Notes: generated from the letters alone by a model not told the origin. Positions 15,712-47,612 are shown, numbered from the stretch's first letter. The stretch: DNA of 64,000 nucleotides from a bacterium (GCA_919901565.1 CAKKPE010000107.1:7091-71090), one strand, 5' to 3'. Made by a program: numbers and translations.

Positions 15712-15962
15712 GGTTCATTCGTGTTTAAATTGAACCAGTCAGAAATCAGAATCAAAGATCAAAAACGGGCAAGACATAGTAGCACCCGATTACGAATGAC
15801 TCGGTAGATCTTCCCGTTCAATCGAAAGTCAATAAACTTGAGCCATAAAAAAGCCCGTCTCAGAACCCGTATTGGTATTCATTTTTAATTTTTACTTTGC
15901 CATTTTGATTTTTGATTCTTTATTTAATCTCTATCGCTGTTCAACTTTCTTGCGAAAGAACC
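15712..15962 (-). repeat. Foldback intergenic element, copy A (short variant with internal deletion)
   Basis: Shares termini ggttcattcgtgtttaaattgaacc…gttcaactttcttgcgaaagaacc and the AT-rich arms aatcaaagatcaaaaa / attttgatttttgattcttt with copies B-E. Confidence 0.8.
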
Positions 15963-15991
15963 CAAAATTTATCAGCAAAGCAGCTCTCTTA

Positions 15992-17068
15992 TTACTTTTG
16001 ACATGGGTCTTTCGCCGAGGCTTTCAGCCACCGTTCTGCCGGGAGATAAACCGCCCGCCTGGACATCGAGGACTGGTAGAGCCGGTTCATGAACCGCCAG
16101 GGGTCTCCTCTTGTGGTCCCCCGGATCACAAACCGGTGGGCCAGTGTGCCGAGCCACTGGAACAGGTATCGGTTCGAGAGCGATGTATAGAGTTGCTTTG
16201 CAAAGGCCTCTTTCCAGAGGGAATTATAGTCCGCTCCATATATGATGCTTCGGGCGGCCAGATATCCGGAGGTCAGTGCATACCGGATCCCGAAACCAAA
16301 GAGAAAATCCTGGAATCCTGCAGCCTCTCCCACGTAGAGCCGATGATGACGGGCAGCGTTACGGGCCGGAAAGTAGCTGCCGTAACCGGTAAACCGCCGC
16401 CCCCCCTCCATGGAAAATGGGCGGATCTTCTGGAAAACCTCGATGCTCCGGTCAAGGTAGTCAGGCCCGTTTTTAAAGTCTTTGAAATAAACGCTCGCCA
16501 GCGTCGCCTGCCCCTGCCGGACAAGAAGGTAGGCATATCCCCAGGGCGCTATCCGGTTGTCCAGGTAAGCCATGATGGTATCATCAAGATCGGTCTGGAA
16601 CAACACGCCGCTGGCCATGGTATTGGGCTTTCCGGGGCCGGTCGCGATGATGTCCCCCTGGTCCGGGTTCATCCGCTGGTTGAATAGAAGAGAGACCCCT
16701 GCCTCCCGGGCCTGTTTTTCCAATGAACGGTCCAGGCTCCCTTCCATGGGGCCCCGAAGGGTAAGGTAGAAGAGAGGCCTTTGTGAATTCACGGTCCCTC
16801 CGATACCTCCCCGCATAAAGAACTCTCCCCGCGTATAGGGCTGACAGAGGAAGTCGGTACGGATCGACATCCCCTGAAGCGCAGAAAGGAAGTCCTCGCC
16901 GGTGCTCCAGTTTTCAATTCCCTGGAAATCCCCGCGGAAACGCATTCCCACGTCCGGGTTCCTCTCGAATACCGTAACGCCATACCCCGCATGGGCCAGA
17001 TGCACGGCCGCGCACAGCCCTGCCGGGCCGGCCCCGATGATCCGGATCATTTTATTCGTTTTTTTCAT
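15992..17068 (-). CDS. FAD-dependent oxidoreductase, geranylgeranyl-reductase-like family
   Basis: IRIIGAGPAGLCAAVHLA Rossmann motif. About 360 aa. The ATG at 17068 is preferred over the track's alternative TTG at 17074. Confidence 0.75.
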   Translation of the reverse strand: MKKTNKMIRIIGAGPAGLCAAVHLAHAGYGVTVFERNPDVGMRFRGDFQGIENWSTGEDFLSALQGMSIRTDFLCQPYTRGEFFMRGGIGGTVNSQRPLFYLTLRGPMEGSLDRSLEKQAREAGVSLLFNQRMNPDQGDIIATGPGKPNTMASGVLFQTDLDDTIMAYLDNRIAPWGYAYLLVRQGQATLASVYFKDFKNGPDYLDRSIEVFQKIRPFSMEGGRRFTGYGSYFPARNAARHHRLYVGEAAGFQDFLFGFGIRYALTSGYLAARSIIYGADYNSLWKEAFAKQLYTSLSNRYLFQWLGTLAHRFVIRGTTRGDPWRFMNRLYQSSMSRRAVYLPAERWLKASAKDPCQK

Positions 17069-17385
17069 GTCCAATTTGAACCACGCAGAGATTGGGAATC
17101 AAAGTATTTCCTGCACGCATTAAGAATCAAAGATCAAAAATAAAAAATCAAAATGACAAATCAAAATATAAAAATTGTGCATCCCCTCTTGGAAAGCCTG
17201 CCCTGGATTCAAGACACAGGATCCCAAACAGGCAAGATGCCGAAACACCCCCTTGTATCGCACGGCATTAAACTCGAGTCATAAAAGTGTCCATCTCAGA
17301 ACCCGTCTTGATATTTTTTTTATTTTTACTCCGTTATTTTGATTTTTGATTCTTTATATTTAATTTTTTATAGCCGTCGCTGTAT
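17063..17385 (-). repeat. Foldback intergenic element, copy B
   Basis: Left terminus ttttcatgtccaatttgaaccacgcag, the conserved core cctcttggaaagcctgccctggattcaagaca, and the AT-rich inverted arms. Its right arm supplies the last ~17 codons of nadE. Confidence 0.8.
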
Positions 17386-19142
17386 TTGTTCGTAATCGGC
17401 AGCCTGCGTCCTGAGCCGAAGGCCCTGGGTGTAATACGGATGCCCGGGGCCGCCTGTTGGCGTTTGTACTCGTTTTTATCGATCATCCGTATGATCTTAT
17501 GAACGGTTTTCCTGTCATAACCGAGATCCACGATCTCTGAGGCGGATTCATCCAGTTCCACATAGGCGTGCAGGATTCCGTCCAGGATCTCATAGTCCGG
17601 AAGGGTATCCGAGTCCTTCTGTCCGGGAGAAAGCTCCGCCGAAGGAGGTTTGGTCAGGATTCGTTCCGGGATCACCGGTTTTTTGGCAAGGCTGTTTCTG
17701 TAGCGGGCGAGTTGATAGACCATGGTTTTGGGCACATCGGAAATCAGGGCCAGACCCCCGGCCATGTCTCCGTAGAGGGTGGCATAGCCCACTCCCACTT
17801 CGGATTTGTTCCCCGTGCTGATGACCAGGTAGCCGAACTTGTTGGACAGGGCCATGAGGATCATCCCTCGGATCCGTGCCTGGATGTTTTCTTCGGTGAC
17901 GTCTTTTTTCCTGCCCTTGAAGACACTGGAAAGTGTCGCCATAAAGGCGTCATGGATATCGTGGATCGGGATGAGCTTCAACGGGATGCCCAGGTTCCCG
18001 GCCAGAATTTTTGCATCCTCCACGCTTTCCATGGAGGAGATCCTGCTCGGCATGGAGACCCCGACCACATGATCGGCTCCAATGGCGTCCACGGCCAGGG
18101 TTGCCGTCAGGGCTGAGTCGATCCCACCGGAGATCCCGATGACGACTTTCTTGAAGTCGTTTTTCCGCGCATAATCCGATAGACCGAGCTTGAGCGCCGC
18201 ATAGACCTCTTCGTAGGGATGATAGTCTTCATGGGCCTCATGCAGCTGGAAGGGGTTCTCTCTGGTGCCGAGTTTCTTTTTGCATGCGCCTTTATCGGCG
18301 CAGCGGGTGATCCCCTTGGAAGATATGACCGTCAAAACCTTGCCGCTCATTTTGGCTTCTAACGCCCTCCGGCGGTTCCGGGGGTTTTTCAGCCGGTCGT
18401 GGCGGACATCCTCCAGGGCCAGGCCGGATACAATCAGGTCTTCCTCAAAGGCCTTGCCGAGGGATATCAGGTGTCCCTGCTGGTCGGCAACCATGCTCCT
18501 GCCGTCAAAGACCAGGTCGTCCTGGCCGCCGACCATGTTGTTGAACATCAGGATGACGAGGCTATCCTTGGCCCTCGCGGCGATCATCTCGCGTCTTATG
18601 CCCGCCTTGCCGGCATGAAAGGGCGATGCCGAGATGTTGACCACGAGTTCGGCTCCGTTCCGGGCCAGTTCCACGGCCGGTCCGTCCGGGAACCAGATGT
18701 CCTCACAGATTGTGACCCCGAAAAGGGCGCAGTCCAGATCAAACAGAAAACTTTGGGTCCCTTGCTGAAAATAGCGGTGCTCATCGAATACATCATAGTT
18801 CGGAAGAAAGATCTTGTGCTGGGTGCCGATCCATTTCCCGTCATGCAGGACAGCGGCGGCGTTGTAGAGATCATCCGTGTAGTCCACAAATCCCACAATC
18901 ACACAGATCCCTTTTGTCTCCGGAAGGAGCTTCAGCAGGCATTCCCGGTTCTGCCGGATAAAGCTCGGTTTCAACAAAAGATCCTTGGGCGGGTACCCGG
19001 TTACGGCCAGTTCCGGGAACGAGAGGATCTGAACTCCCTTTTTACGGGCAGCCCGAATCCACTGGATAATTTTTTTACAGTTTCCCTCCAGGTCCCCAAC
19101 CACCGGGTTGATCTGCGCCATTCCCACGCGGAGGCATCTCAT
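17334..19142 (-). CDS. nadE: Glutamine-dependent NAD+ synthetase (N-terminal CN-hydrolase domain + NAD synthase domain)
   Basis: MAQINPVVGDLEGN… nitrilase-like N-terminus and the SGGIDSALTATLAV PP-loop. The C-terminus KKLNIKNQKSK is read out of repeat copy B. Confidence 0.85.
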   Translation of the reverse strand: MRCLRVGMAQINPVVGDLEGNCKKIIQWIRAARKKGVQILSFPELAVTGYPPKDLLLKPSFIRQNRECLLKLLPETKGICVIVGFVDYTDDLYNAAAVLHDGKWIGTQHKIFLPNYDVFDEHRYFQQGTQSFLFDLDCALFGVTICEDIWFPDGPAVELARNGAELVVNISASPFHAGKAGIRREMIAARAKDSLVILMFNNMVGGQDDLVFDGRSMVADQQGHLISLGKAFEEDLIVSGLALEDVRHDRLKNPRNRRRALEAKMSGKVLTVISSKGITRCADKGACKKKLGTRENPFQLHEAHEDYHPYEEVYAALKLGLSDYARKNDFKKVVIGISGGIDSALTATLAVDAIGADHVVGVSMPSRISSMESVEDAKILAGNLGIPLKLIPIHDIHDAFMATLSSVFKGRKKDVTEENIQARIRGMILMALSNKFGYLVISTGNKSEVGVGYATLYGDMAGGLALISDVPKTMVYQLARYRNSLAKKPVIPERILTKPPSAELSPGQKDSDTLPDYEILDGILHAYVELDESASEIVDLGYDRKTVHKIIRMIDKNEYKRQQAAPGIRITPRAFGSGRRLPITNKYSDGYKKLNIKNQKSK

Positions 19143-19358
19143 GGACCCGCTCCTTCCCTGAAAAAGATTATTTTGTTATATGGAGTCAGGCGTATCATAA
19201 AAAATAGAGTGAGAAAATTCAAGCGAATTCATACATCTCTGTCAAAACTCCTGCTGCGCAGCGTTTACTCACAAAAAACCTGATTGTTTTCCGCCCAGGG
19301 TTATACTATTATATCTGAAATTTGCCAAATATTATGCAACGGTCATCGAGGAGAAAGC

Positions 19359-21326
19359 TTGACTTCCGGTCAGAGTAAAGAACCCAAAAAGGTGATCCTT
19401 GTAGGAAGCCCGAATGTGGGGAAAAGTGTGATCTTCGGTCTCCTCACCGGCAGGTATGTCACGGTTTCCAATTATCCCGGGACCACGGTTGAGGTCTCGG
19501 AAGGGATTATCCAATCCTCGTCCGGGGGGAGGGGAAACATCAGAGTCATTGACAGCCCGGGCGTAAACAGCCTGATCCCCAAGTCCGAGGATGAACAGGT
19601 AACCCGGAATATCCTGCTGCGTTCCGAGGATGCCGGTGTGCTGCAGGTGGCCGATGCCAAGAACCTGAAGCGGGCCCTCCTGATCAACTCCCAGCTTTCG
19701 GATATGGGCCTTCCCATGGCCCTTGTATTGAATATGTACGATGAGGCCGAGGAACGGGGGATCCGTATCGACAAGGACCGGCTCTCAAAGCTTCTGGGGA
19801 TCTGTGTGATCCCCACGGTCGCCACCGAGCGGAGAGGTCTGAAAGAGATCCGTAAATCCCTTGCCGATTTTCGGAAGGCCGAGCGCCATTTCAATTTTGC
19901 GCCATCCATAGAAAAGGCCGTCGAGGAGCTTTCATCGCTTCTTCCGGAAATCCATCTGTCCAAGCGGTTTCTCTCCCTGACCCTTCTTGCCGGGGACAAA
20001 CATCTTCTGAAGTTCCTGGAAGAGATCAAGCCGGACCTCGCAATCCAGAGAGTCCATCAGATTCTTGAGGAGACGCAGAAGGTATTCAAAGATCCCCTGG
20101 GGTATGTGATCCAGAGACAGCGGCAGGCATTCGTTGACGGGATCTTCAGCCAGTGTGTCAGCATCAAAGAGAGGCGGGCATCCGGCTGGAGGGAAAAAGC
20201 CGGGAATTTGTCCATGCACCCGGTTTACGGCGTCCCGATCCTTCTGGTCCTGCTCTATATTATGTACATCTTTGTGGGGAAACTGGGCGCAGGCTACGGG
20301 GTTAACTTTCTGGAATCCGTGGTGTTCGGCAAATATGCCACGCCTTTTATGACCCGGGTCATTGACCTTGTGATCCCCATCCCGCTTGTGCATGATCTTC
20401 TGGTCGGGGAATACGGCGTTCTCTCTGTGGGCTTGACCTATTCTGTGGCCATTGTCATGCCGGTGGTGAGCTTCTTTTTCATCTTTTTCGGGGTCCTCGA
20501 GGATTCCGGTTATCTCCCCAGGCTCACGGTCATGTCCAACAAGATCTTTAAAAAGATCGGGCTGAACGGCAGGGCGGTCCTTCCCATGGTCCTCGGCCTG
20601 GGCTGCGCCACCATGGCCACCCTGACCACGCGTATCCTGGAGACAAAAAAGGAAAGGATCATCGCCACCCTTCTGCTTGCCCTGGGGGTCCCCTGTTCCG
20701 CACAACTGGGTGTGATCATGGGCCTTCTGGGAGGACTCTCCTTGAAGGCTCTGATGGTGGTCGCCGTCACGGTCCTGATGCAGCTCATGATCGTAGGGTA
20801 TCTCGCGGCAAAGGTCCTTCCGGGGAACACCTCGGATTTTCTGATCGAGATCCCGCCCCTCAGGGTCCCGCAGATTTCCAATCTGGTGATAAAGACCTAT
20901 CACCGGGTCAAATGGTTCCTCAAGGAGGCGGTCCCTCTCTTCATGATAGGGACCTTCATTCTCTTCCTGCTCCACCGGATGGGCCTGATCCGTGGTATTG
21001 AGCGGGTGATTGAGCCGATTGTGGTGGGGCTTCTCAACCTGCCGGCCAAGAGCGCCGAGGCCTTCATCCTCGGTTTCCTCCGACGGGATTACGGCGCGGC
21101 CGGGCTGTTCCGGATGGCCCAGGGCGGGGAGATGGACCTCATACAGCTCACCGTCGGTGTCACGGTTATGGTCCTCTTTGTCCCGTGTCTCGCCAACTAC
21201 CTGGTCATGATCAAAGAGCACGGCAAGACAAAGGCGTTCTACATGGTGACGTTCATTTTCGTCTATGCGGTGCTGGTGGGGTTTGTTTTGAATCTGCTAT
21301 TGCGGCATTTCCCTGTTTTATCATAG
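19359..21326 (+). CDS. feoB: Ferrous iron transport protein B
   Basis: G-domain VGSPNVGKS…DSPG, followed by a polytopic membrane domain. Probable TTG start at 19359, 7 nt after GGAGGA. The track's start at 19284 is also TTG. Confidence 0.85.
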   Translation: MTSGQSKEPKKVILVGSPNVGKSVIFGLLTGRYVTVSNYPGTTVEVSEGIIQSSSGGRGNIRVIDSPGVNSLIPKSEDEQVTRNILLRSEDAGVLQVADAKNLKRALLINSQLSDMGLPMALVLNMYDEAEERGIRIDKDRLSKLLGICVIPTVATERRGLKEIRKSLADFRKAERHFNFAPSIEKAVEELSSLLPEIHLSKRFLSLTLLAGDKHLLKFLEEIKPDLAIQRVHQILEETQKVFKDPLGYVIQRQRQAFVDGIFSQCVSIKERRASGWREKAGNLSMHPVYGVPILLVLLYIMYIFVGKLGAGYGVNFLESVVFGKYATPFMTRVIDLVIPIPLVHDLLVGEYGVLSVGLTYSVAIVMPVVSFFFIFFGVLEDSGYLPRLTVMSNKIFKKIGLNGRAVLPMVLGLGCATMATLTTRILETKKERIIATLLLALGVPCSAQLGVIMGLLGGLSLKALMVVAVTVLMQLMIVGYLAAKVLPGNTSDFLIEIPPLRVPQISNLVIKTYHRVKWFLKEAVPLFMIGTFILFLLHRMGLIRGIERVIEPIVVGLLNLPAKSAEAFILGFLRRDYGAAGLFRMAQGGEMDLIQLTVGVTVMVLFVPCLANYLVMIKEHGKTKAFYMVTFIFVYAVLVGFVLNLLLRHFPVLS

Positions 21327-21337
21327 GAGGGGAAGAC

Positions 21338-21997
21338 ATGAACAAGGAGGAACGGGAAGAGGCCCTGGAACTGGTCGGCACCCTGGCGGAGAAGGGTGAG
21401 GTTCTTCTGAACGACCTGCAGGAGAAGCATCTGCATCATCCCCTGACCCTGGAACAGATCGACCTGCTCCAGAAGGAGCAGATGATCATTCTGGATAAAG
21501 ACGGCCGGGTCCGGACCACGCCCCAAGGAGATAGATTGGCCCGGGAGATTATCCGGCGGCACCGTCTGGCTGAACGGCTGATTGTGGATGTGCTGGTCCT
21601 CAAGGACCCGGATAGATTTGAAGCATCGGCCTGCGACCTTGAGCATGTGCTCTCCCAGGAGCTCACGGACAGCATCTGTACCCTGCTGGGGCACCCGACG
21701 GTTTGCCCGCATGGAAAACCGATCCCGCCGGGCCTGTGTTGTTCAGAAAGGAGGACCCGGGTCAAAAGCCTGATCGGCTCTCTGGAAGAACTCGATGCCG
21801 GAGAGGAAGGGATCATCGCCTATATCTCAACAAGAGACCATGCCCGGCTGGACCGGCTGACCGCCATGGGCCTGTTCCCCGGGACCCTGATCAAGGTGCA
21901 TCAGAAACAGCCCGCCCTGGTCATCCTCTATGAGGAGACCACCCTGGCCATTGATCTGGAGATCGGCCAGGAGATCCATGTCTGGAGAAAGAAATAA
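21338..21997 (+). CDS. DtxR/MntR-family metal-dependent regulator with a C-terminal FeoA (SH3-like) domain
   Basis: AGGAGG ribosome-binding site before the ATG at 21338. DtxR metal-binding/dimerisation region (RRHRLAERLI…HPTVCPHGKPIP). The C-terminal GIIAYISTRDHARLDRLTAMGLFPGTLIKV resembles FeoA. Confidence 0.7.
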   Translation: MNKEEREEALELVGTLAEKGEVLLNDLQEKHLHHPLTLEQIDLLQKEQMIILDKDGRVRTTPQGDRLAREIIRRHRLAERLIVDVLVLKDPDRFEASACDLEHVLSQELTDSICTLLGHPTVCPHGKPIPPGLCCSERRTRVKSLIGSLEELDAGEEGIIAYISTRDHARLDRLTAMGLFPGTLIKVHQKQPALVILYEETTLAIDLEIGQEIHVWRKK

Positions 21998-22018
21998 CAG
22001 GGGCCAAGCCGAGCCGTT

Positions 22019-23440
22019 TTATTTCTGTAGGAATCGGATAACCCGGTCCGCCACTTTTTCCGAACTCTGCACGCAGTCATTGATTCCAACACCGTAGAAA
22101 GCATTGCCTGTCAGGAAGATCCCGGGATGGTTTTTGGCGAAGATCTGCTCCAGTTCTGAAATCCGTTTGCTGTGTCCGACCGTATACTGGGGGATGGCCT
22201 TTTCATGCCGGAAGAGTTTGATGAATTCCGGGGGAGTTTGGATCCCCATGATTTCTTTCAGGGTCTCACGGGTATTGGCGACCACGGTATCCGCATTCAG
22301 AAGTCCATATGCAGGGCGGCGCGCTCCTCCGGCCATGCTCCGAAGAGAGACATACCCATCTGGCGCCCTGCCGGGGAAGATGCTGGAATCCCAGAGCGTG
22401 CCCAGGATCTTTTTCTCTTCCTTGCCCGGGATCAGGAATCCGAACCCGTCCACAGACATGGGGATGGCCTCTTTTCTGTAACCCAGGCAGATCACGGAGA
22501 GCGGCGCATAAGGGATCTGTTCCAGAAGTTCCGAGGATCGGGGCTCCATGCCTGCAAACAGACTGGATGCCACATAGGCGGGAACTGCGGAGACCACGAT
22601 CTCAGCCGGGACAGGGTTCACATCTTTCTCGAGGTGGACCAGAAAAGGGGCCTCTCCATGCAGCCCTCTGTCGACTCGGGAGACCCTGCGGGATACACGG
22701 ACTGCATGGGAAAGGGCGTGGTGCAGGGAATTGATCAGGTCCTCCAGACCTCCCTGAAAGGAGGTGAGGATGCCTCCCGGTCCAGCGGGGCCGGCCTGAG
22801 GTGTTTTTGCTTCCCCTGCCGCCTTCTTTTTCTTTTGGAGCTTGATCATGGCCCGGACCAGGCTTCCATACTCGGATTCCAACTCTGCAATCCTCGGGAA
22901 ACAGCTTTTCAGGCTCATCTGTTCCGGGTCCCCGGCAAAGATCCCCGAGACCATGGGTCCGATCAGTTTGTCCAGGGCCTCCTGACCCAGTCGCCGCCGC
23001 GCGAAATCCGCGAGGGTTTCGTCCCGGTCCTTTGGCCCTCTTCGGGCCCAGAGCTCACCGATGATTCTCAGACGTCCCCGTATAGACAGGAGGTTGGATC
23101 TGAAAAATGCAGGAGGACTTTCCGGAAGGGCATGGAGTTTGCCTTCGGAGTATATAAAACGTTTTCGTGCCTCATCCCTGCTTCTGAGCAGGCGGCCGGA
23201 AACGTTCAGGCGGTCACACAGGTCCAGGGTAATGGGTTTGTTGTCGAGGAAACCGTTGGGGCCGTACTCGCAAAGAAAGCCCTGGTCCCGGACACTCCAG
23301 ATCTTCCCTCCGAGCCGGTCCTCGCCTTCCAGGACTGTGAGTTCTATCTCCTGTCCGGCCCTTGCAGCTGCTTCCCGGATGCAAAAGGCGGCGGAGAGTC
23401 CGGAGATGCCGCCGCCCATGACCACAATGCGTGTCCCCAT
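22019..23440 (-). CDS. Protoporphyrinogen/coproporphyrinogen oxidase (HemY/CgoX family, FAD amine-oxidase fold)
   Basis: VVMGGGISGLSAAF…LEGEDRLGGKI N-terminus and overall length match the HemY family. Confidence 0.7.
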   Translation of the reverse strand: MGTRIVVMGGGISGLSAAFCIREAAARAGQEIELTVLEGEDRLGGKIWSVRDQGFLCEYGPNGFLDNKPITLDLCDRLNVSGRLLRSRDEARKRFIYSEGKLHALPESPPAFFRSNLLSIRGRLRIIGELWARRGPKDRDETLADFARRRLGQEALDKLIGPMVSGIFAGDPEQMSLKSCFPRIAELESEYGSLVRAMIKLQKKKKAAGEAKTPQAGPAGPGGILTSFQGGLEDLINSLHHALSHAVRVSRRVSRVDRGLHGEAPFLVHLEKDVNPVPAEIVVSAVPAYVASSLFAGMEPRSSELLEQIPYAPLSVICLGYRKEAIPMSVDGFGFLIPGKEEKKILGTLWDSSIFPGRAPDGYVSLRSMAGGARRPAYGLLNADTVVANTRETLKEIMGIQTPPEFIKLFRHEKAIPQYTVGHSKRISELEQIFAKNHPGIFLTGNAFYGVGINDCVQSSEKVADRVIRFLQK

Positions 23441-23576
23441 AGCGAATCCTGTATGCGGGTATTAAAAAGCGGACAATATTTTTTGCATACTTATATAGGA
23501 GAGCGGTGAAATGTCAATGTTTTTATGAAATAAATCTATACCCAGGCTCCTTTTTGTTGTATAAGAAGAAGGCAAT

Positions 23577-23632
23577 CCTCTCCCCAAGGGGAGAGGAAGT
23601 TCAAACATCCCTTCTCCCCATAGGGGAGAAGG
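23577..23632 (+). promoter_or_regulatory. Two adjacent near-identical perfect stem-loops (CCTCTCCCCaaGGGGAGAGG and CCTTCTCCCCataGGGGAGAAGG) in the hemY / MBL-RNase divergent region
   Basis: Read directly. 10-bp GC-rich stems 12 nt apart, about 110 nt upstream of the ATG at 23743. Confidence 0.4.
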
Positions 23633-23742
23633 TTAGGATGAGGGGGGACACCAAAAGACACGACAAGGTTGACACGACACTAGAAAAAATTAAGGAATCT
23701 GGCAAACATGCGTTAACTTTTTTTGTGAGGGGGTTATTTCAT

Positions 23743-26403: not shown

Positions 26404-26428
26404 ATTTAATTTTATGGAGGAAATCATT

Positions 26429-27686: not shown

Positions 27687-27863
27687 TGCGTTGAATTGAG
27701 GCGTCGCATCGGATTTTCACGAACAAGCAATGAAATATGGGTGGCATGCAAGACGGTCATATCCAATAAAGGAATACTTGTTCTCCTTGATTTTAATCCG
27801 GATTTGTAATACGATTAACAGATATGTGACGGCCAAAAGAGCATTGCTCTTCTCGTGCTGTTG

Positions 27864-28027
27864 CTAAGTGGCCCTATTCGTAAATACGGTGGCATTCGAA
27901 TGCCGTAGGGCGTTCTCCTCGGCGTTGCGCTCCTTGCGGTGAGGGGTACGCCTCAGTCACGCTCCTTGATGAGGCCGCCCTACGACCCTCTCGGTACGTC
28001 ACCATATTTACGAACAGGACCACTAAG
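27864..28027. repeat. Long imperfect palindrome (about 165 bp) with CTAAGTGGCCCTATTCGTAAATACGGTG…CACCATATTTACGAACAGGACCACTAAG termini; long member of the family seen at 5797-5829
   Basis: The reverse complement of the right half aligns with the left half over about 45 bp. Sits between uspA and the HMGL-like gene. Confidence 0.7.
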
Positions 28028-28088
28028 ATATAGATATCATGTTGTTTTAGAAAGGGGTTTCCCGAATTATCCGACAAGGAGAGGAAAA

Positions 28089-31191: not shown

Positions 31192-33063
31192 TTATACTCT
31201 GCCCGATTGGATCGGGTCGCTTAACCGTTCTTCAAATGATCGGGCTTTGTTTTCGTACTCCACGGTCAGCTCTTCAAGTTCGCCGAAAAGAAGATCCATC
31301 TTTTTCCTGGATTCAGAGATGGACTTGGAGCTTTTTTTTATGGACTCACCATTCTGATTCTGTGAGGCCTCAAGAAGAAGCTGGGTCTCATGGTCAATGC
31401 GCTCTTCCAGTTCCTCGATGGTGTTTTCAACTTCGCGGATTCTTTTTTCAAGCGCAGCCAAAGTCTTTGACCTTTCTGCAAGAATTTCGGCGCGGATGCG
31501 CCTCATATCTTTTTTGTTCACGGGTTTATTTTTCTGTGCCTTGCTCCCGGTGCAAGGGGCAGGGGCGATCTCATCCTTCCATCCGACCCTGTCCAGAAAG
31601 TCCTGATAGGTGCCTTCGAACATTTTTACCTGATTGTCGTCGAAAACGATCAACCTTGTCGCCACGGAGCGGAGGATCATTTCACTGTGTGTGACGATCA
31701 TGACGGCGCCATTGAATGCGTCGATGGCCTCGAGCAGGGAATCAACGGATTCCATGTCAAGATGATTGGTCGGCTCGTCGAGCAGCAGGAGGTTGGCCGG
31801 GCAGGCGAGCAGCTTCCCGAGAAGAACCCTGCTCCTTTCGCCGCCCGAGAGTACCGCTATTCTTTTTAACGCCTTGTCCCCGTCAAACATCATCGCTCCG
31901 CAGATGCTGCGGGCCGCTTTTCTGTTTTGATCAGGATGGGCACCAAGGATTTCCTGTTCAACGGTATTATCCAGATTCAGACGGTTGATATTGGTCTGAC
32001 CGAAATAGGCAATCTTCAAGTCCTGATGCAGTCCTATAATTCCGGCTGTGGGTGAAAGTTCGCCTGCAAGAAGGTTCAATAAGGTGGTTTTGCCCTGCCC
32101 GTTCTTCCCGATAATGCCGATCCTGTCGTTTTTGCTCACAGAAAAACTCAAGCGGTCAATCAGAAGAGGATCTTCGGGATTAAACGAGAAGGAGAGGTCC
32201 TCGGCCCTTAAGAGCCATTTGCCCGAAAGGGGGGAGGCATTGAATTCGAAGTCCAGGGTCTTGATCTCCGAGAGTTTCTCAAGCTTTTCCTTCTTGAGAA
32301 GAGCCTTGACCCTGGATTGGACTGCACTGGCCTTGGTTGCCTGGGCCCTGAATCGGTTTATGAACTGCTCGGTTTCCTTGCGCTTTTTATCATCGTTCAC
32401 ACGGGTCTTCTCAAAGATCTCTTCTTCCTGGAGGACCTGCTGGGAGAATTTGAGGGTTGAACCGGATATTTTCCTGATCCTGCAGCGGTGAATCCCCATG
32501 GTGTGCGTGGTCACGCTGTCCATGAAGGCCCGGTCATGCGTGATCAGCATCAGCTCGTTCTTCCATGAAAGCAAAAAACGGTTCAGCCATCGGGCTGAGA
32601 CGATATCCAGGTAGTTTGTGGGTTCGTCGAGAAGGAGAAGGTTGGGTTCAGAGATCAGCACCTTGGCAAGATTCAATCGGACCTGGAAGCCGCCGGAGAG
32701 TTCATCCGGATGACGGTCAAAGTCCTTGCTGGAGAAACCAAGTCCCTGGAGGACATTCTTCACCCTGTACGTCTCATCTCTGCCGTCCTCGGTTGTCTTG
32801 AGGCTCGAGCACCCCTCTTTTAGGATGGTCTCCTCTGTAAAATGGATGTGCTGGGAAAGATGGGCGATGGAATAATGATTCGGGATACGGATTGCCCCTG
32901 CATCCGGGTGTTCTTCCCCGAGGATCATTCTGAACAGCGTGGTTTTCCCATGACCGTTCCTGCCGATCAGTCCGATGCGCTCGCCTGCATTGATCGAGAA
33001 ACTGATCTTGTTGAAAATAATCTGTTGTCCATACGATTTGTCTATCTCGCTGACTTGAATCAT
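31192..33063 (-). CDS. ABC-F family ATPase (Uup/YheS/EttA-like, two ABC cassettes and a C-terminal coiled coil)
   Basis: Two Walker A sites (GRNGHGKTT and GKNGQGKTT), LSGG signatures, and a charged helical C-terminus. Start at the ATG at 33063 (MIQVSEIDKSYG…). The track's longer N-terminus runs into repeat copy C. Confidence 0.85.
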   Translation of the reverse strand: MIQVSEIDKSYGQQIIFNKISFSINAGERIGLIGRNGHGKTTLFRMILGEEHPDAGAIRIPNHYSIAHLSQHIHFTEETILKEGCSSLKTTEDGRDETYRVKNVLQGLGFSSKDFDRHPDELSGGFQVRLNLAKVLISEPNLLLLDEPTNYLDIVSARWLNRFLLSWKNELMLITHDRAFMDSVTTHTMGIHRCRIRKISGSTLKFSQQVLQEEEIFEKTRVNDDKKRKETEQFINRFRAQATKASAVQSRVKALLKKEKLEKLSEIKTLDFEFNASPLSGKWLLRAEDLSFSFNPEDPLLIDRLSFSVSKNDRIGIIGKNGQGKTTLLNLLAGELSPTAGIIGLHQDLKIAYFGQTNINRLNLDNTVEQEILGAHPDQNRKAARSICGAMMFDGDKALKRIAVLSGGERSRVLLGKLLACPANLLLLDEPTNHLDMESVDSLLEAIDAFNGAVMIVTHSEMILRSVATRLIVFDDNQVKMFEGTYQDFLDRVGWKDEIAPAPCTGSKAQKNKPVNKKDMRRIRAEILAERSKTLAALEKRIREVENTIEELEERIDHETQLLLEASQNQNGESIKKSSKSISESRKKMDLLFGELEELTVEYENKARSFEERLSDPIQSGRV

Positions 33064-33111
33064 CTCTTCCCTAATGACGGGCCATGCTGTCTTGAGGCCT
33101 GATTTAATGTC

Positions 33112-33467
33112 TTTTTCATGTTTAAGTTGAACCACGCAAAAATTGGAAATTAAAATTTTTTTTGCAAGCTTAAGAATCAAAGATCAAAAATCAAAATTAC
33201 AAATCAAAATATAAAAATGGCTCAGCCTCTTTTGGAAAGCCTGGCTTGGATTCAAGACATGAACTCCCAAACGGGCATAACGCCCAAGCACCCGATTACA
33301 AATGACTCTATCTCCCCCTTCTATCGCACTTCAATAAACTCGCGTTACAAAAAAGTTAATCTCAGAACCATCCTTTAATATTCATTTCTGATTTTTACTT
33401 TGTCATTTTGATTGTTGATTCTTTATCTTTAATTTCTATAACCGTTAAACTTTCTTATGAAAGAACC
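33112..33467 (-). repeat. Foldback intergenic element, copy C (full length)
   Basis: Termini ttttcatgtttaagttgaacc…ccgttaaactttcttatgaaagaacc, core cctcttttggaaagcctggcttggattcaagacatgaactcccaaacgggca, and 70-bp AT-rich inverted arms. Confidence 0.85.
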
Positions 33468-33531
33468 GTTTAAATTTCAAATGGGCTATGGGCAAAAACC
33501 CGGCAGTTTGCTCTATGAGGTTTCTTGGCAT

Positions 33532-33565
33532 AAAAAAGCTCCATGGTTGACCATGGAGCTTTTTT
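33532..33565. terminator. Bidirectional rho-independent terminator (AAAAAAGCTCCATGG-ttga-CCATGGAGCTTTTTT) downstream of cspA
   Basis: Perfect 10-bp GC-containing stem flanked by an A-run and a T-run. Confidence 0.75.
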
Positions 33566-33589
33566 ATGACCGTACAGGCATGTTTTTTA

Positions 33590-35880: not shown

Positions 35881-35894
35881 GACGGATTTTGCTT

Positions 35895-35980
35895 TATAGA
35901 AATGAAAGATAAAGAATCAAAATTTTATTTTTTGATTTGTCATTTTGATTTTTAATCTTTGATTCTTGATTCTCAATGTG
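35895..35980. repeat. Foldback element copy E: minimal form, AT-rich inverted arms only, sited between the convergent typA and PPIase genes where it can act as a bidirectional terminator
   Basis: aagaatcaaaattttattttttgatttgtcattttgatttttaatctttgattctt carries the family arm motifs gtcattttgattttt and aagaatcaaa. Confidence 0.65.
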
Positions 35981-36120
35981 TGCAAGAACTGCTCTGTTTT
36001 CCAAAACATCGCTAAGCAAAATCAGATAAATGCCGGATCGACCCCTGGAAAGACGTCTATGAAGAGGTCCTTTGGTGCCGGAACCGGCGTTTATGGCAGC
36101 CTGTGGTTAATCGGGAGCCC

Positions 36121-37360: not shown

Positions 37361-37436
<76 letters not shown>

Positions 37437-38722: not shown

Positions 38723-39153
38723 CCGCAGGGAAAGGATCTCTTGAAAGAGAAAGGGCTGGATCGCTATCTGTGAGTCAGATCATCGGCATCGGAATCGATA
38801 TCATAGAAATTAAACGGATCGAGAAGGCCATGCAAAAGGGTTCTGACCGTTTCCGTATCCGGATCTTTACGGACCGTGAGGTGGAGTACTGCGAGAAAAA
38901 GAGGAAAAAGTATCAGCATTATGCTGCACGTTTTGCCGCCAAGGAGGCGGCCATGAAGGCACTGGGCACCGGGTTGCGCAAAGGGATCGGTTTCCCTGAG
39001 ATTGAACTGATCAACAAGGTGTCCGGGAAACCGGAATTGTTCTTTTATGGCAAGGCCCGGGAGATTTTAGACGCCTCTGGAGGGAGGGAGGTGTCTGTTT
39101 CGGTTTCTCATTCCAACGATTACGCCGTAGCCACGGTGGTACTCAGTGGGTAA
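38719..39153 (+). CDS. acpS: Holo-[acyl-carrier-protein] synthase
   Basis: [15 protein letters not shown]… is the AcpS fold. The ATG at 38719 overlaps the gap stop as ATGA. A GTG at 38770 is a possible alternative start. Confidence 0.75.
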
Positions 39154-40501: not shown

Positions 40502-40798
40502 GGATGGATTCTCCCTAAGTAATAACCTCAAACAGGCACTATCCTGTTCCAACTATATTATCGGGTATTCTTGCCTGAAACTTGAGAGGATAAACGGCAG
40601 AGGCCGAAAAGCAAAGATATGGCCTAAACTTAATTGGTCAGAAGGGCGGATAACCGGAAGGAATAATGATAAAGAGATGAACTGTCCATAACATGGCTAT
40701 GAAACCTCAAAAATTCACACAGGCCGTTGCTTTCCATGAAAAATAATCCCAAAGGGGGGTTGCTATTTTAATTAACCGTGACTATATTTGCAAGTTCA

Positions 40799-40825
40799 TT
40801 AGCACTCATCCTTGTAGAGTGCTAA
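40799..40825 (+). promoter_or_regulatory. CIRCE operator (HrcA binding site) upstream of groES-groEL
   Basis: TTAGCACTC-atccttgta-GAGTGCTAA, a perfect match to the CIRCE consensus, about 80 nt upstream of groES. Confidence 0.9.
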
Positions 40826-40907
40826 CAATCCCGTAAATCTGACAGGTTATAAAAAAGGGGAAAGTTCATCATTTTTAGTAACTCATTGAAAGGAAAGGAG
40901 AATCAGA

Positions 40908-41165
40908 ATGCTAAAACCATTGAAGGATCGACTTTTGGTCAGCTACCTGGAAAAGGAAGAGAAGACGGCCGGAGGGATCATCATTCCGGACACCGCCAAG
41001 GAACGCCCTCAGAAAGGGAAGGTGGAGGCCATCGGTAAAGAAGTGGAGGATATCAAGGTTGGAAATGTGATTATGTTCAAGACCTATTCTCCGGACAACA
41101 TCAAGATGGATGGCAAGGAGTATGGTATTTTAAAAATGGAAGACGTCATGGGAATTATTGAATAA
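40908..41165 (+). CDS. groES: Co-chaperonin GroES
   Basis: [11 protein letters not shown]…[15 protein letters not shown]…. Confidence 0.9.
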
Positions 41166-41173
41166 CATCTTGA

Positions 41174-42844
<1,671 letters not shown>

Positions 42845-42877
42845 TTTAAATCTTTTTTTCAAAAGCACTGATATGAT

Positions 42878-42909
42878 CCCTCTGTGATTCTCACAGAGGG
42901 ATTTTTTTT
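42878..42909 (+). terminator. Rho-independent terminator of groESL (CCCTCTGTGA-ttc-TCACAGAGGG followed by ATTTTTTTT)
   Basis: Read directly, 34 nt after the groEL stop. Confidence 0.8.
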
Positions 42910-42943
42910 AAGAAGGTTTATGTGAGAGTTCTCAAAAATCTAT

Positions 42944-43510
42944 TTAGGAGAGAAAGGCCTCACGCTCATCCGGGGTGATCTCCACCTCTTCAGAGGCCTT
43001 GCCTTTTCGGAAAGGGTGCAGGCCCGCCATCTCATTCACATTCGAGTCCTGTTTTTTCAGTTCCGTGTGGAACCTTTCCATATAGAGAAATTTCTGGCCA
43101 AGAACTTCAAAACAGCGATATTGATAGAGAAGATGGATGTGGAGAGGGGCTGCCCTGAGAAATCTTTTCATAAGCAAAGGGAATTCCGGGTAGATCAGGG
43201 CAGCCCCGGGGGGGACGGTTTTTCTTAAATCAAGGCTCGGAAACAACTGCCGAAGTACGGAGAGGTTTTTTGTAAACCAGTCCAACTGGGCATCGGCATT
43301 CAACAGGGCGTTTTCATCGGGCTTGATGTCTGCAAAGATGAGCAGGGGCCTCTCCTCGTTATCCTTCGCCACCAGATCGATCAAGGGGAACTCTTCATCC
43401 CCGATTGGACCGCCAAGGATTTCAACCCCCTCTTCAATCATGGATGCAGTGTTTTTGATGAGTTCTATCAGGTCCTTTTTTTTATTCAGTTGGATGTGTT
43501 TAAAGGACAT
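42944..43510 (-). CDS. Hypothetical protein (188 aa), third gene of the ParA-CBM48 cluster
   Basis: Start overlaps the upstream gene's stop by 11 nt. No recognisable domain. Confidence 0.5.
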   Translation of the reverse strand: MSFKHIQLNKKKDLIELIKNTASMIEEGVEILGGPIGDEEFPLIDLVAKDNEERPLLIFADIKPDENALLNADAQLDWFTKNLSVLRQLFPSLDLRKTVPPGAALIYPEFPLLMKRFLRAAPLHIHLLYQYRCFEVLGQKFLYMERFHTELKKQDSNVNEMAGLHPFRKGKASEEVEITPDEREAFLS

Positions 43511-44390
43511 GAGCCTTCTCTATGGAACGTAGTCTCTGGTCATGATCATCTATGATCAATCTGCTGATATTATAAATATGCCTTCGCATTTCAGAGGTGG
43601 ACCATTTCAAGACCAATGGAACCCCTTCAGCCATGGACTTTCCTATTTCTTCACATTTCTGAATGAAGGCGTAGCTGAGCAGATCCTTTTGAAGGAACCG
43701 TTTTGTATTTCCGGCCATTCGGGAAAATGCATCGGATGCATCCTGCTCGCCTTTTTCTGATAAAACAATCAGGCCGATCTGAATCTGCCGGGCTTTTTGA
43801 TGGAGAGCCTTGATCACAGAGTAGGATTCAAGCATGCCTGTCCGGTCTGTCGGGGCAATGACCATGAAGAGGGATATCTGGCGGAGCATGGCCCCCAGTT
43901 CTTCCAAGCGATTGTATGGGATGTGAAAAATAATAAAATCAAATTTCTGGTACTCTTCAGGCCAGGGATAACGATTGCCATTCTGATGGATATCCCTGTA
44001 AGACAGGAGATGACTGAGAAAGGGGGTGCGGTAGGTCGTCCTGACGCCCATGGGGGCATGGATCAGGATGGGTTCGGCAGCGTTTTCAATGTCCATCAGC
44101 CCCATCAGCCGGGTTACATTCAAATTTCCCGGATCATCGTCCACCACCAGTACCCGATACCCTTGCCTGGCCAACTCGATGGAAATGTTGCAGATGGCGA
44201 ATATCCCCATGGTGTCCATAGGCCCGCCCGTGATGCCGATGGTTTGGATCTCAGGCATGGCCTGACGCTTTGCATCAAACTCAGGCACGCTGCGATCAAG
44301 AGGAATGTCGGTCACAGTTTTTGAGGATTCAGCAGAGAAGAATACATCGGATATTTCCTCGAGCCCTCTTCCCAACCTCCTCCCTTTCAT
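43500..44390 (-). CDS. Degenerate ParA/MinD-fold protein (Walker A lysines lost: ITGGPMDTMG) with an N-terminal ParB-like GRGL peptide (MKGRRLGRGLEEI); putative partner/adaptor of the upstream ParA-CBM48 ATPase
   Basis: AAGGAG ribosome-binding site. The N-terminus resembles the ParA-stimulating N-peptide of ParB/Spo0J (GLGRGLxAL). The body aligns with MinD/ParA topology (…YRVLVVDDDP…) but lacks the KGGxGKT P-loop. Confidence 0.55.
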   Translation of the reverse strand: MKGRRLGRGLEEISDVFFSAESSKTVTDIPLDRSVPEFDAKRQAMPEIQTIGITGGPMDTMGIFAICNISIELARQGYRVLVVDDDPGNLNVTRLMGLMDIENAAEPILIHAPMGVRTTYRTPFLSHLLSYRDIHQNGNRYPWPEEYQKFDFIIFHIPYNRLEELGAMLRQISLFMVIAPTDRTGMLESYSVIKALHQKARQIQIGLIVLSEKGEQDASDAFSRMAGNTKRFLQKDLLSYAFIQKCEEIGKSMAEGVPLVLKWSTSEMRRHIYNISRLIIDDHDQRLRSIEKAHVL

Positions 44391-44465
44391 GGGATCTCCT
44401 TATCATGCTCAGATGGACATGAATGTGTGTCCTGAAAAATATTGTGTATCTAACGGCCTTTATGG

Positions 44466-45611
44466 TTATTGGGACGGGCGCTCTGTCTTTATATCCAATG
44501 CGGGACCACTTTCTTCTTGATGAGATCGTTCCCAGTAAGGTACTTCCACAACGGAGTCCACTCCGCCGAACTCGTTGACGATGTAGTTAGGGTTGTGCTG
44601 ATCCTCCTTCCACTCGCCATCCGCGATGAATTTATAATGGTATTTTCCAGGCGGCAGGTGGATCACTTTTTTCCAGGTCCCATCCGGTTGTTTATGGAGT
44701 TCATAAGACGGATCCGGCGTCCAGTTATTAAAGTCTCCGACCAGTTTCAGGGATTGCACATTGGAGGCCTTGTAGGAGAAGAGAATACCGTTTGTCACCG
44801 GGCAAGGGCCCAGTATTTGGGCTGTCTGCTTCTGCACCTCTTTTTCTGGAATTTGAATCACCTCTTGCGTAAGGGCAAGAAAGTCTTTATATCCGACACA
44901 ATTTTTATCAAACTCGGTAATGGGAGAGCCGAAACTGGCCGCTTCTTTGAGGCGGATATTGAAATGGATAACCGTCTGAAAAGTATTTTCCTTGAAGTGT
45001 TTCTTGACCTCCTCAAAGATCTCGCTGGAAAGTCTTGTCCTTTTATCGAACATGGTGAGCAGGATATGGATCTGGATGTCGTGACCCAGCTTTTCTGAAA
45101 ACATCTGAATGGTTTCAGTCAGCTTTCCAAGACCGTGTAGTGAAAAAAAGCTCGGTTCAACGGGGATGATGACGTCCTGGGATGCCGTCAATGCATTGAA
45201 AGACAATAGTCCCACAGAAGGAGGACAGTCGATCAGGATATAGTCATATTCCCTCTTCAGGCCCTGGATGGCCTGCAGAAGCCTGGTTTCTCTCCCGGGG
45301 GTATTGGCCAGTTTTTGTTCAAAGGCGGACAGAACAATATTGGAAGGAATCAGGTCAAAATTTTCCCCGGCTGGGATGATAATATCTTCCAGTATGGGTC
45401 TATCCACCTCATCAATTGAGAGGAGGACATCATAAAGACAGATTTCAAGCTCTTTTGGCTTGATATTGAGACCTAAAGAAGCGTGTGACTGGGGGTCCAT
45501 ATCAATCAGTAAGACCCTTTTTCCCAGGGAAGCAAGAGATGCTGAAAGATTGATGGCCGTTGTTGTCTTGCCGCAGCCCCCTTTTTGATTTACAATCGAT
45601 ATTGTTTTCAT
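44466..45611 (-). CDS. ParA/MinD-family ATPase fused to a C-terminal CBM48 / AMPK-beta glycogen-binding domain
   Basis: Deviant Walker A NQKGGCGKTTTAINL, DMDPQ, and the rest of the ParA fold to about residue 250. The C-terminus LKLVGDFNNWTPDPSYELHKQPDGTWKKVIHLPPGKYHYKFIADGEWKEDQHNP matches the CBM48/AMPKbeta-GBD pattern (FNNW…LPxGxHxYKFxxDGxW). Confidence 0.75.
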   Translation of the reverse strand: MKTISIVNQKGGCGKTTTAINLSASLASLGKRVLLIDMDPQSHASLGLNIKPKELEICLYDVLLSIDEVDRPILEDIIIPAGENFDLIPSNIVLSAFEQKLANTPGRETRLLQAIQGLKREYDYILIDCPPSVGLLSFNALTASQDVIIPVEPSFFSLHGLGKLTETIQMFSEKLGHDIQIHILLTMFDKRTRLSSEIFEEVKKHFKENTFQTVIHFNIRLKEAASFGSPITEFDKNCVGYKDFLALTQEVIQIPEKEVQKQTAQILGPCPVTNGILFSYKASNVQSLKLVGDFNNWTPDPSYELHKQPDGTWKKVIHLPPGKYHYKFIADGEWKEDQHNPNYIVNEFGGVDSVVEVPYWERSHQEESGPALDIKTERPSQ

Positions 45612-45919
45612 AGTGCGCTCCTTTCAGGATGGCCTTCGCTCTGATATGGGAATACGATCTTCTTATTGAAGCTCGTTAGCAGTTCAGAACCTGTCATGGC
45701 CTTTTTCCGCGTCACCTCCTCATTAATCAATCTTATGCAGGAAAAGTTTCACACGGTGTCCTATTTTGTATTCATAGAGAGCATGTACACTATATATAGT
45801 ATAGAAAGATAGACAAGATTATAAAGAATGTCAAGAAAAATTATCAATTTTTTGACAAAAAAAGATTAGCCCTTCTTGGATTCTCAGAAAGGCGGCGTAT
45901 GGCCGGAAGGGGATGATGC

Positions 45920-47284
45920 TTAAATCCCGTACTTTTCCATCTTGTACCTGAGGATCTTCCTGGTAATATGGAGGAGTTCTGCAGTATGGATCTGGACACC
46001 TTCCGCCTGGATCAGTGCCTTTTTGATGTAAGATTTCTCCATCTCTTCCACCAAATCGGATAGAGAGACCCCTTGTTCCGGAATGGTGATATCATTTAGG
46101 GATGTGGCGGGTTTTTGGGGACTGTTGGGGAATGTAAACGATCTTGGGGTTAATATATCAGCACGGGTCAACACAACGGAGCGCTCGATCATATTCTGAA
46201 GTTCCCGTACGTTTCCAGGCCAATCATAATGGATCAACATCTCCATGGCCTCAGGCAGGATGGTTTTTTTAGCCTGATGGGTTTCCGCCGAGTATTTATC
46301 TATGCAATGATGTACCAGAAGGGGGATATCCTCCCGGCGTTCCCGAAGAGGGGGAATGTCGATAGGAACCACATTAATCCGGTAATAGAGGTCCTCACGG
46401 AATCGGCCCTCCCGGACCCTCTGTTCCAGGTTGGTGTTTGTTGCAGCGATCATTCTCACATCCACCCGAAGCGTTTGTGTGCCGCCAAGACGTTCGAATT
46501 CCCCGTTCTGAAGGACCCTTAAGATTTTCACCTGGAGAAGCATGTCCATATCCCCGATTTCATCCAGAAAAAGGGTTCCGCCGTCCGCCAGCTCGAAACG
46601 CCCCGGTTTCTGACGTTCCGCCCCGGTGAAGGCCCCTCTTTCATATCCAAACAGCTCGGATTCCAGGAGGGTGCCGGGAATGGCCCCGCAGTTGAGCTTG
46701 ATGAAAGGCATGGACGATCGGTTGCTATGGTAATGAACGGCCCCGGCAACCAACTCCTTGCCGGTCCCGCTCTCCCCCCGGATCAGAACTGTGCTCTTGG
46801 TAGGGGCGATCTGTGTAATCATCTGGAAAATCCGCTGCATGGAATTGCTTCTGCCGATGATGTTGTCGAAGCGGTATTTTGACTGGAGTTCGGTTCGTAG
46901 CTGTTCGTTCTCTCTTGAAAGCCTTCGATAGCGGATGGCCTTTTCTACAACGACTTCCATTTCTGAAATGTCAAAGGGTTTTAAGATGTAATCAAAGGCC
47001 CCGGCCTTCATGGCTTCCACGGCGGTCTCCACCGTGCCATAGGCGGTCATGATGATGACAGGAATCTCTTCGCCTATGTTTTTGATTTCGTGGAGGACTT
47101 CCATTCCGGACATCCCCGGCATCTTCATGTCCGTGATTACCAGCGAAGGGGGCCTGGTTTTGGCCAGTTCTATCCCTTCAAGGCCTGTGCTGGCTGAGCT
47201 GACATGAAATCCGAGCCCTTCCAGGGAGATCTGAAGGATCCGATGCATCTTTTTCTCATCATCAATTACCAGGATCTCTTCCAT
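45920..47284 (-). CDS. Sigma54-dependent response regulator (REC + AAA+ sigma54-activator + Fis-type HTH; NtrC family)
   Basis: VIDDE…D-M-MPGMSG receiver, GESGTGKE Walker A, GAFTGA motif, C-terminal HTH. Confidence 0.85.
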   Translation of the reverse strand: MEEILVIDDEKKMHRILQISLEGLGFHVSSASTGLEGIELAKTRPPSLVITDMKMPGMSGMEVLHEIKNIGEEIPVIIMTAYGTVETAVEAMKAGAFDYILKPFDISEMEVVVEKAIRYRRLSRENEQLRTELQSKYRFDNIIGRSNSMQRIFQMITQIAPTKSTVLIRGESGTGKELVAGAVHYHSNRSSMPFIKLNCGAIPGTLLESELFGYERGAFTGAERQKPGRFELADGGTLFLDEIGDMDMLLQVKILRVLQNGEFERLGGTQTLRVDVRMIAATNTNLEQRVREGRFREDLYYRINVVPIDIPPLRERREDIPLLVHHCIDKYSAETHQAKKTILPEAMEMLIHYDWPGNVRELQNMIERSVVLTRADILTPRSFTFPNSPQKPATSLNDITIPEQGVSLSDLVEEMEKSYIKKALIQAEGVQIHTAELLHITRKILRYKMEKYGI

Positions 47285-47304
47285 GTGTGCACCTTTAAAA
47301 AATT

Positions 47305-47607
47305 ACTCTCTTTCGTGTTTAAGTTGAAACGCTCAGAAATTGGAAGTTAAAGTATTTTTTGCACGCCTTAAGAATCAAAGATCAAAGATAAAAAATCAAA
47401 ATGGCAAATCAAAATATAAAAATGGCGCGGCCTCTTTTGAAAAGCCTGCCCTGGATTCAAGACATGAGTTCCCAATCGGGCAAGAAGCCGAAGCACCCGA
47501 ACCCGTCTTGATATTCATTTTTTATTTTTACTCTGTCATTTTGATTTTTGATTATTAATTTTTTATCTTTAACTTCTATACCCGTTCAACTTTCTTACGA
47601 AAGAACC
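47305..47607 (-). repeat. Foldback intergenic element, copy D, inserted between the histidine kinase and its response regulator
   Basis: Termini tctctttcgtgtttaagttgaaacg…cccgttcaactttcttacgaaagaacc, core cctcttttgaaaagcctgccctggattcaagacatgagttcccaatcgggcaag, and AT-rich inverted arms. Confidence 0.85.
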
Positions 47608-47612
47608 AAAAA

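Follow-up and report, generated by a model that had tools for sequence, protein, structure and literature searches.

We consider a stretch of bacterial DNA of 64,000 nucleotides (nt; GCA_919901565.1 CAKKPE010000107.1:7091-71090), called here the window, in which all coordinates are counted from the first letter. The spacers between its genes hold a family of short, AT-rich foldback elements, four long copies (A to D) and one fragment (E), with a GC content of 33–36% as against 52% for the window. According to Pfam, A is flanked by the genes of an FAD oxidoreductase and a beta-barrel porin, B by those of NadE and an FAD oxidoreductase, C by those of CspA and ABC-F, and D by those of a histidine kinase and a sigma-54 response regulator, the pairs already named in the original prediction made from this DNA. 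With the boundaries set from the terminal repeats and one empty site, the copies are the following.

15712-15962, minus strand: copy A, 251 nt, with terminal repeats at both ends
17058-17376, minus strand: copy B, about 319 nt, with the 5' terminal repeat gone (alignment)
33109-33467, minus strand: copy C, 359 nt, the most complete copy
47306-47607, minus strand: copy D, 302 nt, with about 75 nt of the first (variable) core segment gone
about 35893-36021, plus strand: fragment E, the start of the A-rich arm followed directly by the T-rich arm and some of the 3' segment

These boundaries leave A as first drawn and correct the other four. The spacer of A is bounded by the stop codon of the FAD oxidoreductase gene (15992) and the start of the porin gene (15689). 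Copy C lies 45 nt upstream of the ABC-F start (33063), and the insertion point of D is exactly the histidine-kinase stop codon, with the response-regulator start 21 nt downstream. Fragment E follows typA/bipA and faces a convergent surA-like gene. A single orientation and a place between a stop codon and the next start codon had been proposed for the whole family; both hold for A to D, all on the minus strand, and neither holds for E, which is on the opposite strand between convergent genes. The long copies had also been placed inside or between operons; for C a place inside an operon has to be withdrawn because C lies beyond the terminator hairpin of cspA itself (33534-33567).

Taken along the minus strand, in the sense in which the flanking genes run, a full copy begins with a 24-nt terminal inverted repeat, GGTTCTTTCGYAAGAAAGTTGAAC. 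It continues with an A-rich arm made of tandem units of roughly 7 nt, a variable core segment, a GC-richer conserved core and a T-rich arm complementary to the A-rich one, and ends in a 3' segment that closes with the inverted terminal repeat …GTTCAACTTAAACAYGAAWGAACC. Each AT-rich arm measures 54–57 nt and repeats the other in inverted form; in a given copy the two are 73–74% complementary, in agreement with the foldback shape first described. A small hairpin (CTTTC-GCAA-GAAAG) stands at the 5' end. In the alignment, a deletion has cost A the last part of the core and the greater part of the T-rich arm, and E has neither core nor termini; each copy has private deletions of this kind, and the family is decaying. 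Its members do not code for protein: no frame is open across all copies, and an 824-residue concatenation of all the stop-free frames of the element scored no homologue in a protein database. A small open reading frame (ORF) in the core was rejected by eye because it is not conserved between copies.

The homology of the five copies, as first proposed, is borne out by colinear alignment, by profile search and by motif counts. A to D align colinearly over 251–359 nt with pairwise identities of 73–85%, and an nhmmer profile built from them recovers each long copy with an E-value of 1e-76 to 1e-121. The same search gives the core-less fragment as the fifth family member in the window (E-value 1.3e-10), and its inversion relative to A to D is seen in the repeat pairs, the nhmmer match and the alignment alike. 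A 23-nt arm motif has 5 matches in the window where shuffles give 0.00, and the 24-nt terminus has 3 where 0 are expected.

We compare these sites with a sister species (loci L090, L100 and L107), in which DNA identity is 78–91% and gene order is conserved. At site C, the alignment of the sister-species locus (L100) with the window runs up to 33107 and resumes at 33469 with nothing between, so that the site is empty to within 1–2 nt; in the window, about 7–8 nt of it occur twice. Site B of the sister species is a 4-nt overlap (ATGA) of nadE with the oxidoreductase gene. At site A, its oxidoreductase/porin spacer is 93 nt long and gives no nhmmer match to the element. No element is found at sites A and B across 21 kb of syntenic sister-species DNA, and about 55 kb of that species contain no full copy. 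They do contain one half copy of 95 nt, consisting of the 5' repeat and the A-rich arm, with a stop codon on one side and the next ribosome-binding site on the other. The orthologous sister-species sites are without the element.

These comparisons bear on the reading that the similarity arose without mobility, the copies being either regulatory regions between genes, ancient and conserved, or AT runs of low complexity that look alike by chance. The arms do have the low complexity that such a reading would draw on, with their A/T-rich units of roughly 7 nt. The colinear homology, however, covers 250–360 nt and includes the termini as well as the GC-richer core, the genes on either side are unrelated from copy to copy, and the elements are absent from the orthologous sites. 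Because of the colinear alignment and the empty sites we regard this reading as already refuted and give it next to no probability; the concern that the shared blocks might be unrelated AT runs is settled in the same way.

The terminal inverted repeats had been recognized before, but only in part: their true length is 24–26 nt and they extend to the outermost bases (GGTTC…GAACC). They are imperfect, with 16–17/26 positions matching in A, C and D (17/26 in A), and are absent from the 5' end of B and from both ends of E, the truncated copies. Directly outside them, D is flanked by a perfect 8/8 repeat, TAATTTTT / TAATTTTT.

47298-47305, strandless: target-site duplication of D, 3'-side copy, whose partner at 47608-47615 contains the histidine-kinase stop codon

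The flanks of A (AAATTTTG / AAATTCTC) and of C (ATTTAAAC / ATTAAATC) each match at 6/8 positions, and at C the sequence represented twice relative to the empty site agrees with an 8-bp duplication. As a control we took 5,881 AT-rich 8-mer pairs at similar spacing, of which 2% match at at least 6/8 and none at 8/8; the chance of a match of at least 6/8 is thus about 0.02 per site. When the element and one duplicate are removed from site D in silico, the sequence reads TAA-18 nt-ATG with an AAAGGTG ribosome-binding site, and removal therefore restores a normal operon junction. Insertion duplicated 8 bp of an AT-rich target. The check for duplications and empty sites that accompanied the original prediction has come out positive on both counts.

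Such termini also decide on the place of the family among the palindromic repeats of bacteria. It could be a REP/BIME-like, ERIC-like or IS200/IS605-type palindromic element, spread by a tyrosine-HUH transposase or by recombination, with its orientation set by the direction of replication. The intergenic location, the foldback shape, the small hairpin at the 5' end and the presence of A to D on one strand would all fit. REP/REPIN and IS200/IS605-type elements have subterminal hairpins and a strand set by replication. The ERIC and BIME (REP) repeats of enterobacteria are likewise imperfect palindromes in transcribed intergenic regions of operons. They differ, however, in being much shorter, in having no defined 8-bp duplication or GG-tipped repeats, and in sharing no sequence similarity with the family. 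To our knowledge, IS200/IS605-type elements and REPs do not make terminal inverted repeats or target duplications, and here the terminal repeats are clear and the duplications are 8 bp. The length of 250–360 nt is far above that of REP units, Rfam and Pfam searches of the window find no related family, and the position of E, between C and D but on the other strand, means that orientation is not a matter of strand alone. We reject membership in the REP/REPIN and IS200/IS605-type groups on the terminal repeats, the duplications and the strand of E, and consider an origin of this kind very improbable.

The short-read assemblies add evidence of another sort. The same organism is present in four Logan assemblies at 97–100% identity, and their contigs stop inside C at window positions 33426, 33247 and 33189. 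Taken together, independent short-read contigs of the organism stop inside C or E, inside B, and, within D, 63 nt before the response-regulator start. Ends inside the elements are the behaviour expected of a dispersed repeat, and the elements in turn explain why assemblies break at these points and why neighbouring gene calls are distorted.

[quoted passage not shown] Among the options in the original prediction, the MITE is the one that the terminal repeats, the 8-bp duplications, the empty orthologous sites and the assembly breaks sustain. Bacterial MITEs are described as 50–600 bp long and AT-rich, without a transposase gene, with terminal inverted repeats and a duplication of fixed length, and as intergenic with AT-rich targets (PMC6382973); the element shows every one of these defining features that can be tested. 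The family agrees with bacterial MITEs such as MITEAba12, Nezha and RUP in size, AT-richness, terminal repeats, duplication and location, and, like them, can fuse to neighbouring reading frames. It is unlike them in general in its foldback layout, with unusually long and repetitive subterminal arms, of about 55 nt and made of about 7-nt units, around a GC-richer core, and in the fairly large divergence of its copies (73–85%). No host function is demonstrated, and a non-autonomous transposon is the best-supported answer. We have before us a new family of a well-known kind of selfish DNA.

As to how it moves, a DDE transposase encoded elsewhere would recognize the GGTTC[T/A]T termini and mobilize the element in trans, and the same or a related enzyme would move the GC-rich sister family described below. 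Selection would remove insertions inside genes, so that copies would persist only where short AT-rich spacers adjoin stop codons and ribosome-binding sites; the pattern of elements wedged between stop and start could then be a result of this survival.

Several observations weigh against the MITE interpretation and have to be set beside it. A search for an autonomous element, in which GGTTCTT termini would flank a transposase gene, covered the window and about 118 kb of related loci and found none, so that mobilization in trans is something that we infer. Two of the three duplications, those of A and C, are imperfect. B and E have neither a full set of terminal repeats nor duplications (no recognizable one flanks B), so that secondary deletion or recombination has to be invoked for them. 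Copy B is absent from a closely related strain (L099, about 97% identical elsewhere), where site B is not empty and holds a different foldback, and B may for this reason be a replacement instead of a simple insertion. The orientation of all six copies with their upstream genes, discussed below, is not predicted by random insertion of a MITE. Finally, the sample is limited to the five copies in the window and one half copy elsewhere.

A wider search places the family in few known genomes. The element is absent from 80 loci of GTDB genomes, in which NadE shares at most 55% identity with that of the window. An exact-pattern scan with the invariant arm columns gives 0 matches in 185,579 GTDB species genomes, and one with three patterns gives 0 in IMG/VR, both being collections that evidently do not hold the source genome. 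The same kind of scan finds one locus, represented in 5 contigs, in JGI metagenomes. A blastn comparison of copy D with plasmids returned a single 28-nt match (E-value 0.02), which we take as chance, and a right-hand extension of 1.7 kb beyond the window holds no copy.

Which known insertion sequences might be related to such a MITE can be asked from the termini. In the ISL3 family, ISArsp7 has the inverted repeat GGCTCTTCGCGGTTGGTGGTGAAT (GGCTCTTCGCG…), 24 bp long, with an 8-bp direct repeat (PMC6305408). The element resembles this family in its 24-bp terminal repeats beginning GGYTCTT(Y)CGC and its 8-bp target duplication; with one example compared, the termini GGTTCTTTCGC and GGTTCTTCTCC are compatible, as are the 24-bp length and the 8-bp duplication. 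The likeness of the terminus extends no further than about 11 of the first 12 positions and involves one indel, and no transposase gene is present or linked. The IS6/IS26 family has GG tips, the conserved motifs cTGTt and caaa, a repeat of 15–20 bp and 8-bp direct repeats, and two MITEs of 227 and 336 bp are known from it (PMC7986276). Here too the GG tips, the 8-bp repeat and the MITE size range are similar, and the IS431-type repeat GGTTCTGTTGCAAAGT (PMC10581047) matches GGTTCTTTCGCAAG at 11 of the first 13 bases. A derivation from IS6/IS26 is nevertheless rejected: in place of cTGTt the element has CTTTC, in place of caaa it has CAAG, and its repeat is 24–26 bp as against 15–20 bp. The ISL3 likeness appears the closer of the two, and an ISL3-type parent is best treated as a lead only.

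The window also contains a member of a second, GC-rich family (G-type), and further members lie in its relatives.

55675-55836, plus strand: G-type copy of the GC-rich sister family, with termini GGTTCTTCTCC…GGATATGATCC
L090 1808-2090; L107 3031-3373 and 9705-9941; L099 3291-3450; L095 3843-4000: G-type copies in relatives

The arms of the window copy hold four GGTTCAAG-like octamers. Complete G-type copies have the termini GGTTCTTCTCC / GGTTCATCTCC and AT-rich flanking repeats of about 8 bp; in a further description the termini are GGTTCTTCTCC…GGAGATGAACC, with an outer stem GTGGGTAAAAAG/CTTTTCACCCAC. The two families have the termini GGTTC[T/A]T in common. When GGTTCTTCTCC / GGTTCATCTCC of the G-type is set against GGTTCTTTCG / GGTTCATTCG of the AT-rich family, the first bases agree, including the T/A difference between the ends, and one type of transposase probably serves both for this reason. 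The sister species apparently has more of the G-type than the window organism does.

The families meet at the same junctions. At site B, the foldback found in L099 is GC-rich, and such a foldback is present there in two more distant species (3 and 4) as well. At site D, the kinase/regulator junction of the sister species (L107) is occupied by an element of the GC-rich family, with an insertion point that differs by a few bases from that in the window organism. This repeated use is best read as a shared preference for a few permissive AT-rich targets. Since B has no duplication and no empty allele is seen among the closest strains, B may have replaced an older foldback, by insertion followed by deletion or by recombination.

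Other repeats of this kind are present in the same genomes. A third palindromic family, about 165 nt long with inverted ends of roughly 30 nt (CTAAGTGGCCCTATTCGTAAATACGGTGGC…), has the following members.

27862-28030 in the window: third palindromic family
L090 15846-16028; L003 9612-9805; L107 12855-13026; L100 7909-7947: the same family in other loci

Its intergenic sites differ between the window organism and the sister species, and in the latter it occupies the typA/surA spacer in which the window has fragment E. We had also considered E to be nested in an old GC-rich foldback; this is rejected, because the left "arm" is the end of the typA coding sequence and is conserved in the sister species too. 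At L100 9822-10003 there is an insertion of 181 nt, bounded by the inverted ends GTGGGGCTGTTGAAAAAGT; it is absent at L101 9822, although these two sister-species strains are otherwise about 99.9% identical. The same end sequence terminates the contig L105 (4578-4603), and a related repeat containing GGGAATGAC lies at about 56031-56130 of the window.

The insertions have left marks on the neighbouring genes. The nadE frame runs into copy B for 13 sense codons, up to a stop at 17334-17336, and because of these codons NadE is 602 amino acids (aa) long here as against 589 aa in relatives. At its other end, the 3' end of B adjoins or supplies the in-frame ATG of the oxidoreductase gene at 17068, and the overlap of the two genes in the sister species is missing in the window organism. 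These effects are real: copy B lengthened NadE by 13 residues and disrupted the overlap of its gene with that of the oxidoreductase. At the kinase/regulator junction, about 18 nt wide, copy D has added 310 nt, of which 302 are the element and 8 the duplication. An ATG in the 3' end of C opens an upstream frame of 19 codons (33063-33119, minus strand), the TGA of which overlaps the ABC-F start codon (ATGA). One database entry starts ABC-F at a TTG at 33180, inside C, and so lists 662 aa instead of 623 aa; the 39-residue N-terminus of this entry is false. In L105 (2845-4603), from the strain of SRR8797411, about 97% identical elsewhere, a convergent 421-aa ORF, in which Pfam finds no domain, comes after the histidine kinase gene. 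Because the regulator does not follow the kinase in this locus, their adjacency is not fixed in the species group.

The next question is "does the element do anything for its host?" At 6/6 independent loci (A to E and the sister-species half copy) it has the same orientation as the upstream gene (two-sided binomial p≈0.03), and E, which is inverted along with its gene, shows that strand by itself does not account for this. The regularity is real, but six loci are too few to decide between chance, selection against one of the two orientations within transcription units, and a directional mechanism. According to the original prediction the element is transcribed and orientation-selected. It would then be a domesticated, orientation-selected cis-regulatory module of transposon origin, acting on the flanking mRNAs when transcribed, either as a hairpin for processing or stability, like the Correia elements cleaved by RNase III, or as an internal promoter for the downstream gene. 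Besides the co-orientation, such a module could claim that four loci end 0–45 nt before the downstream start or ribosome-binding site, that the predicted minimum-free-energy folds of B, C and D pair the long arms, and that a TATATT hexamer resembling a -10 box is kept at the border of core and T-rich arm in these three copies.

The details of the copies do not bear this out. Each has different large deletions, which remove an arm, core segments or termini, and the sister species has the same operons without the element. The complementarity of the arms is 73–74% within copies and 73–82% between copies, and since it is no better within than between, their pairing is not maintained by compensatory change. 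Folding had been suggested as a check, and although the arms do pair, the three fold z-scores obtained (-1.0, -1.6 and -3.5) are unremarkable for two of the three copies. Rfam gives no match except one tRNA over the whole window at the gathering threshold, and a search of C and B at E≤1 gives none. In the elements, motifs resembling sigma-70 promoters or terminators are as frequent as in the shuffled background, with no enrichment. A sigma-54 promoter in the core was rejected by eye because its GG/GC spacing is wrong. A conserved RNA or regulatory role is not supported, nor is the idea of a transcribed element selected for a function, and we judge the module decidedly unlikely.

The nearest functional analogy is offered by the Correia elements (CREE) of Neisseria, which, like this family, insert at gene or operon junctions; they form long RNA hairpins, are co-transcribed with their neighbours, and may carry promoters or make fusions. 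Correia elements are 100–155 bp long, with 26-bp terminal repeats and a TA duplication. The present family differs in its 250–360 bp and its 8-bp duplication, and no integration host factor site, promoter or RNase III processing is shown for it.

It is unlikely that the MITE is more than junk, either by having one orientation that is tolerated or useful within transcription units, or by offering the arm units as multiple subterminal transposase-binding sites, or both. The arm units of 7–8 nt echo the terminal motif, as AATCAAA in this family and as GGTTCAAG in the sister family. Multiple subterminal binding sites are the architecture of eukaryotic foldback, P and hAT-type elements, and we know of no bacterial MITE in which such sites are arrayed. 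If orientation is indeed selected, for instance because of a read-out promoter or a processing hairpin, the family would modulate the expression of operons in the manner of Correia elements, in an uncultured lineage that branches deeply.

Three other features of the window are recorded here. Tandem repeats of 105 nt (35 codons), about 65–88% identical, lie at 6388-7039 inside a 750-aa ORF (5831-8083, minus strand). A PLDc_2-domain gene (12328-12873, minus strand) stands between a CNNM transporter gene and a CHP04442 gene; it is missing at the matching position in the sister species (L090) and present in a more distant relative (L097). A block of higher GC content (60–68% vs 52%) covers 57827-63918 (minus strand) and L109 1-4719; it encodes an HsdR-like protein of type I restriction and a DEAD/ResIII helicase, and may be a horizontally acquired defence island.

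What is known of the mechanism of such elements is unchanged by this MITE family. In this poorly known groundwater lineage, the same few AT-rich operon junctions have been hit repeatedly by MITE-like families, of which there are at least three or four. Their occupancy is not the same in sister species, nor, at one junction, in closely related strains. This differing occupancy makes the elements useful as strain markers and a likely source of differences in expression.

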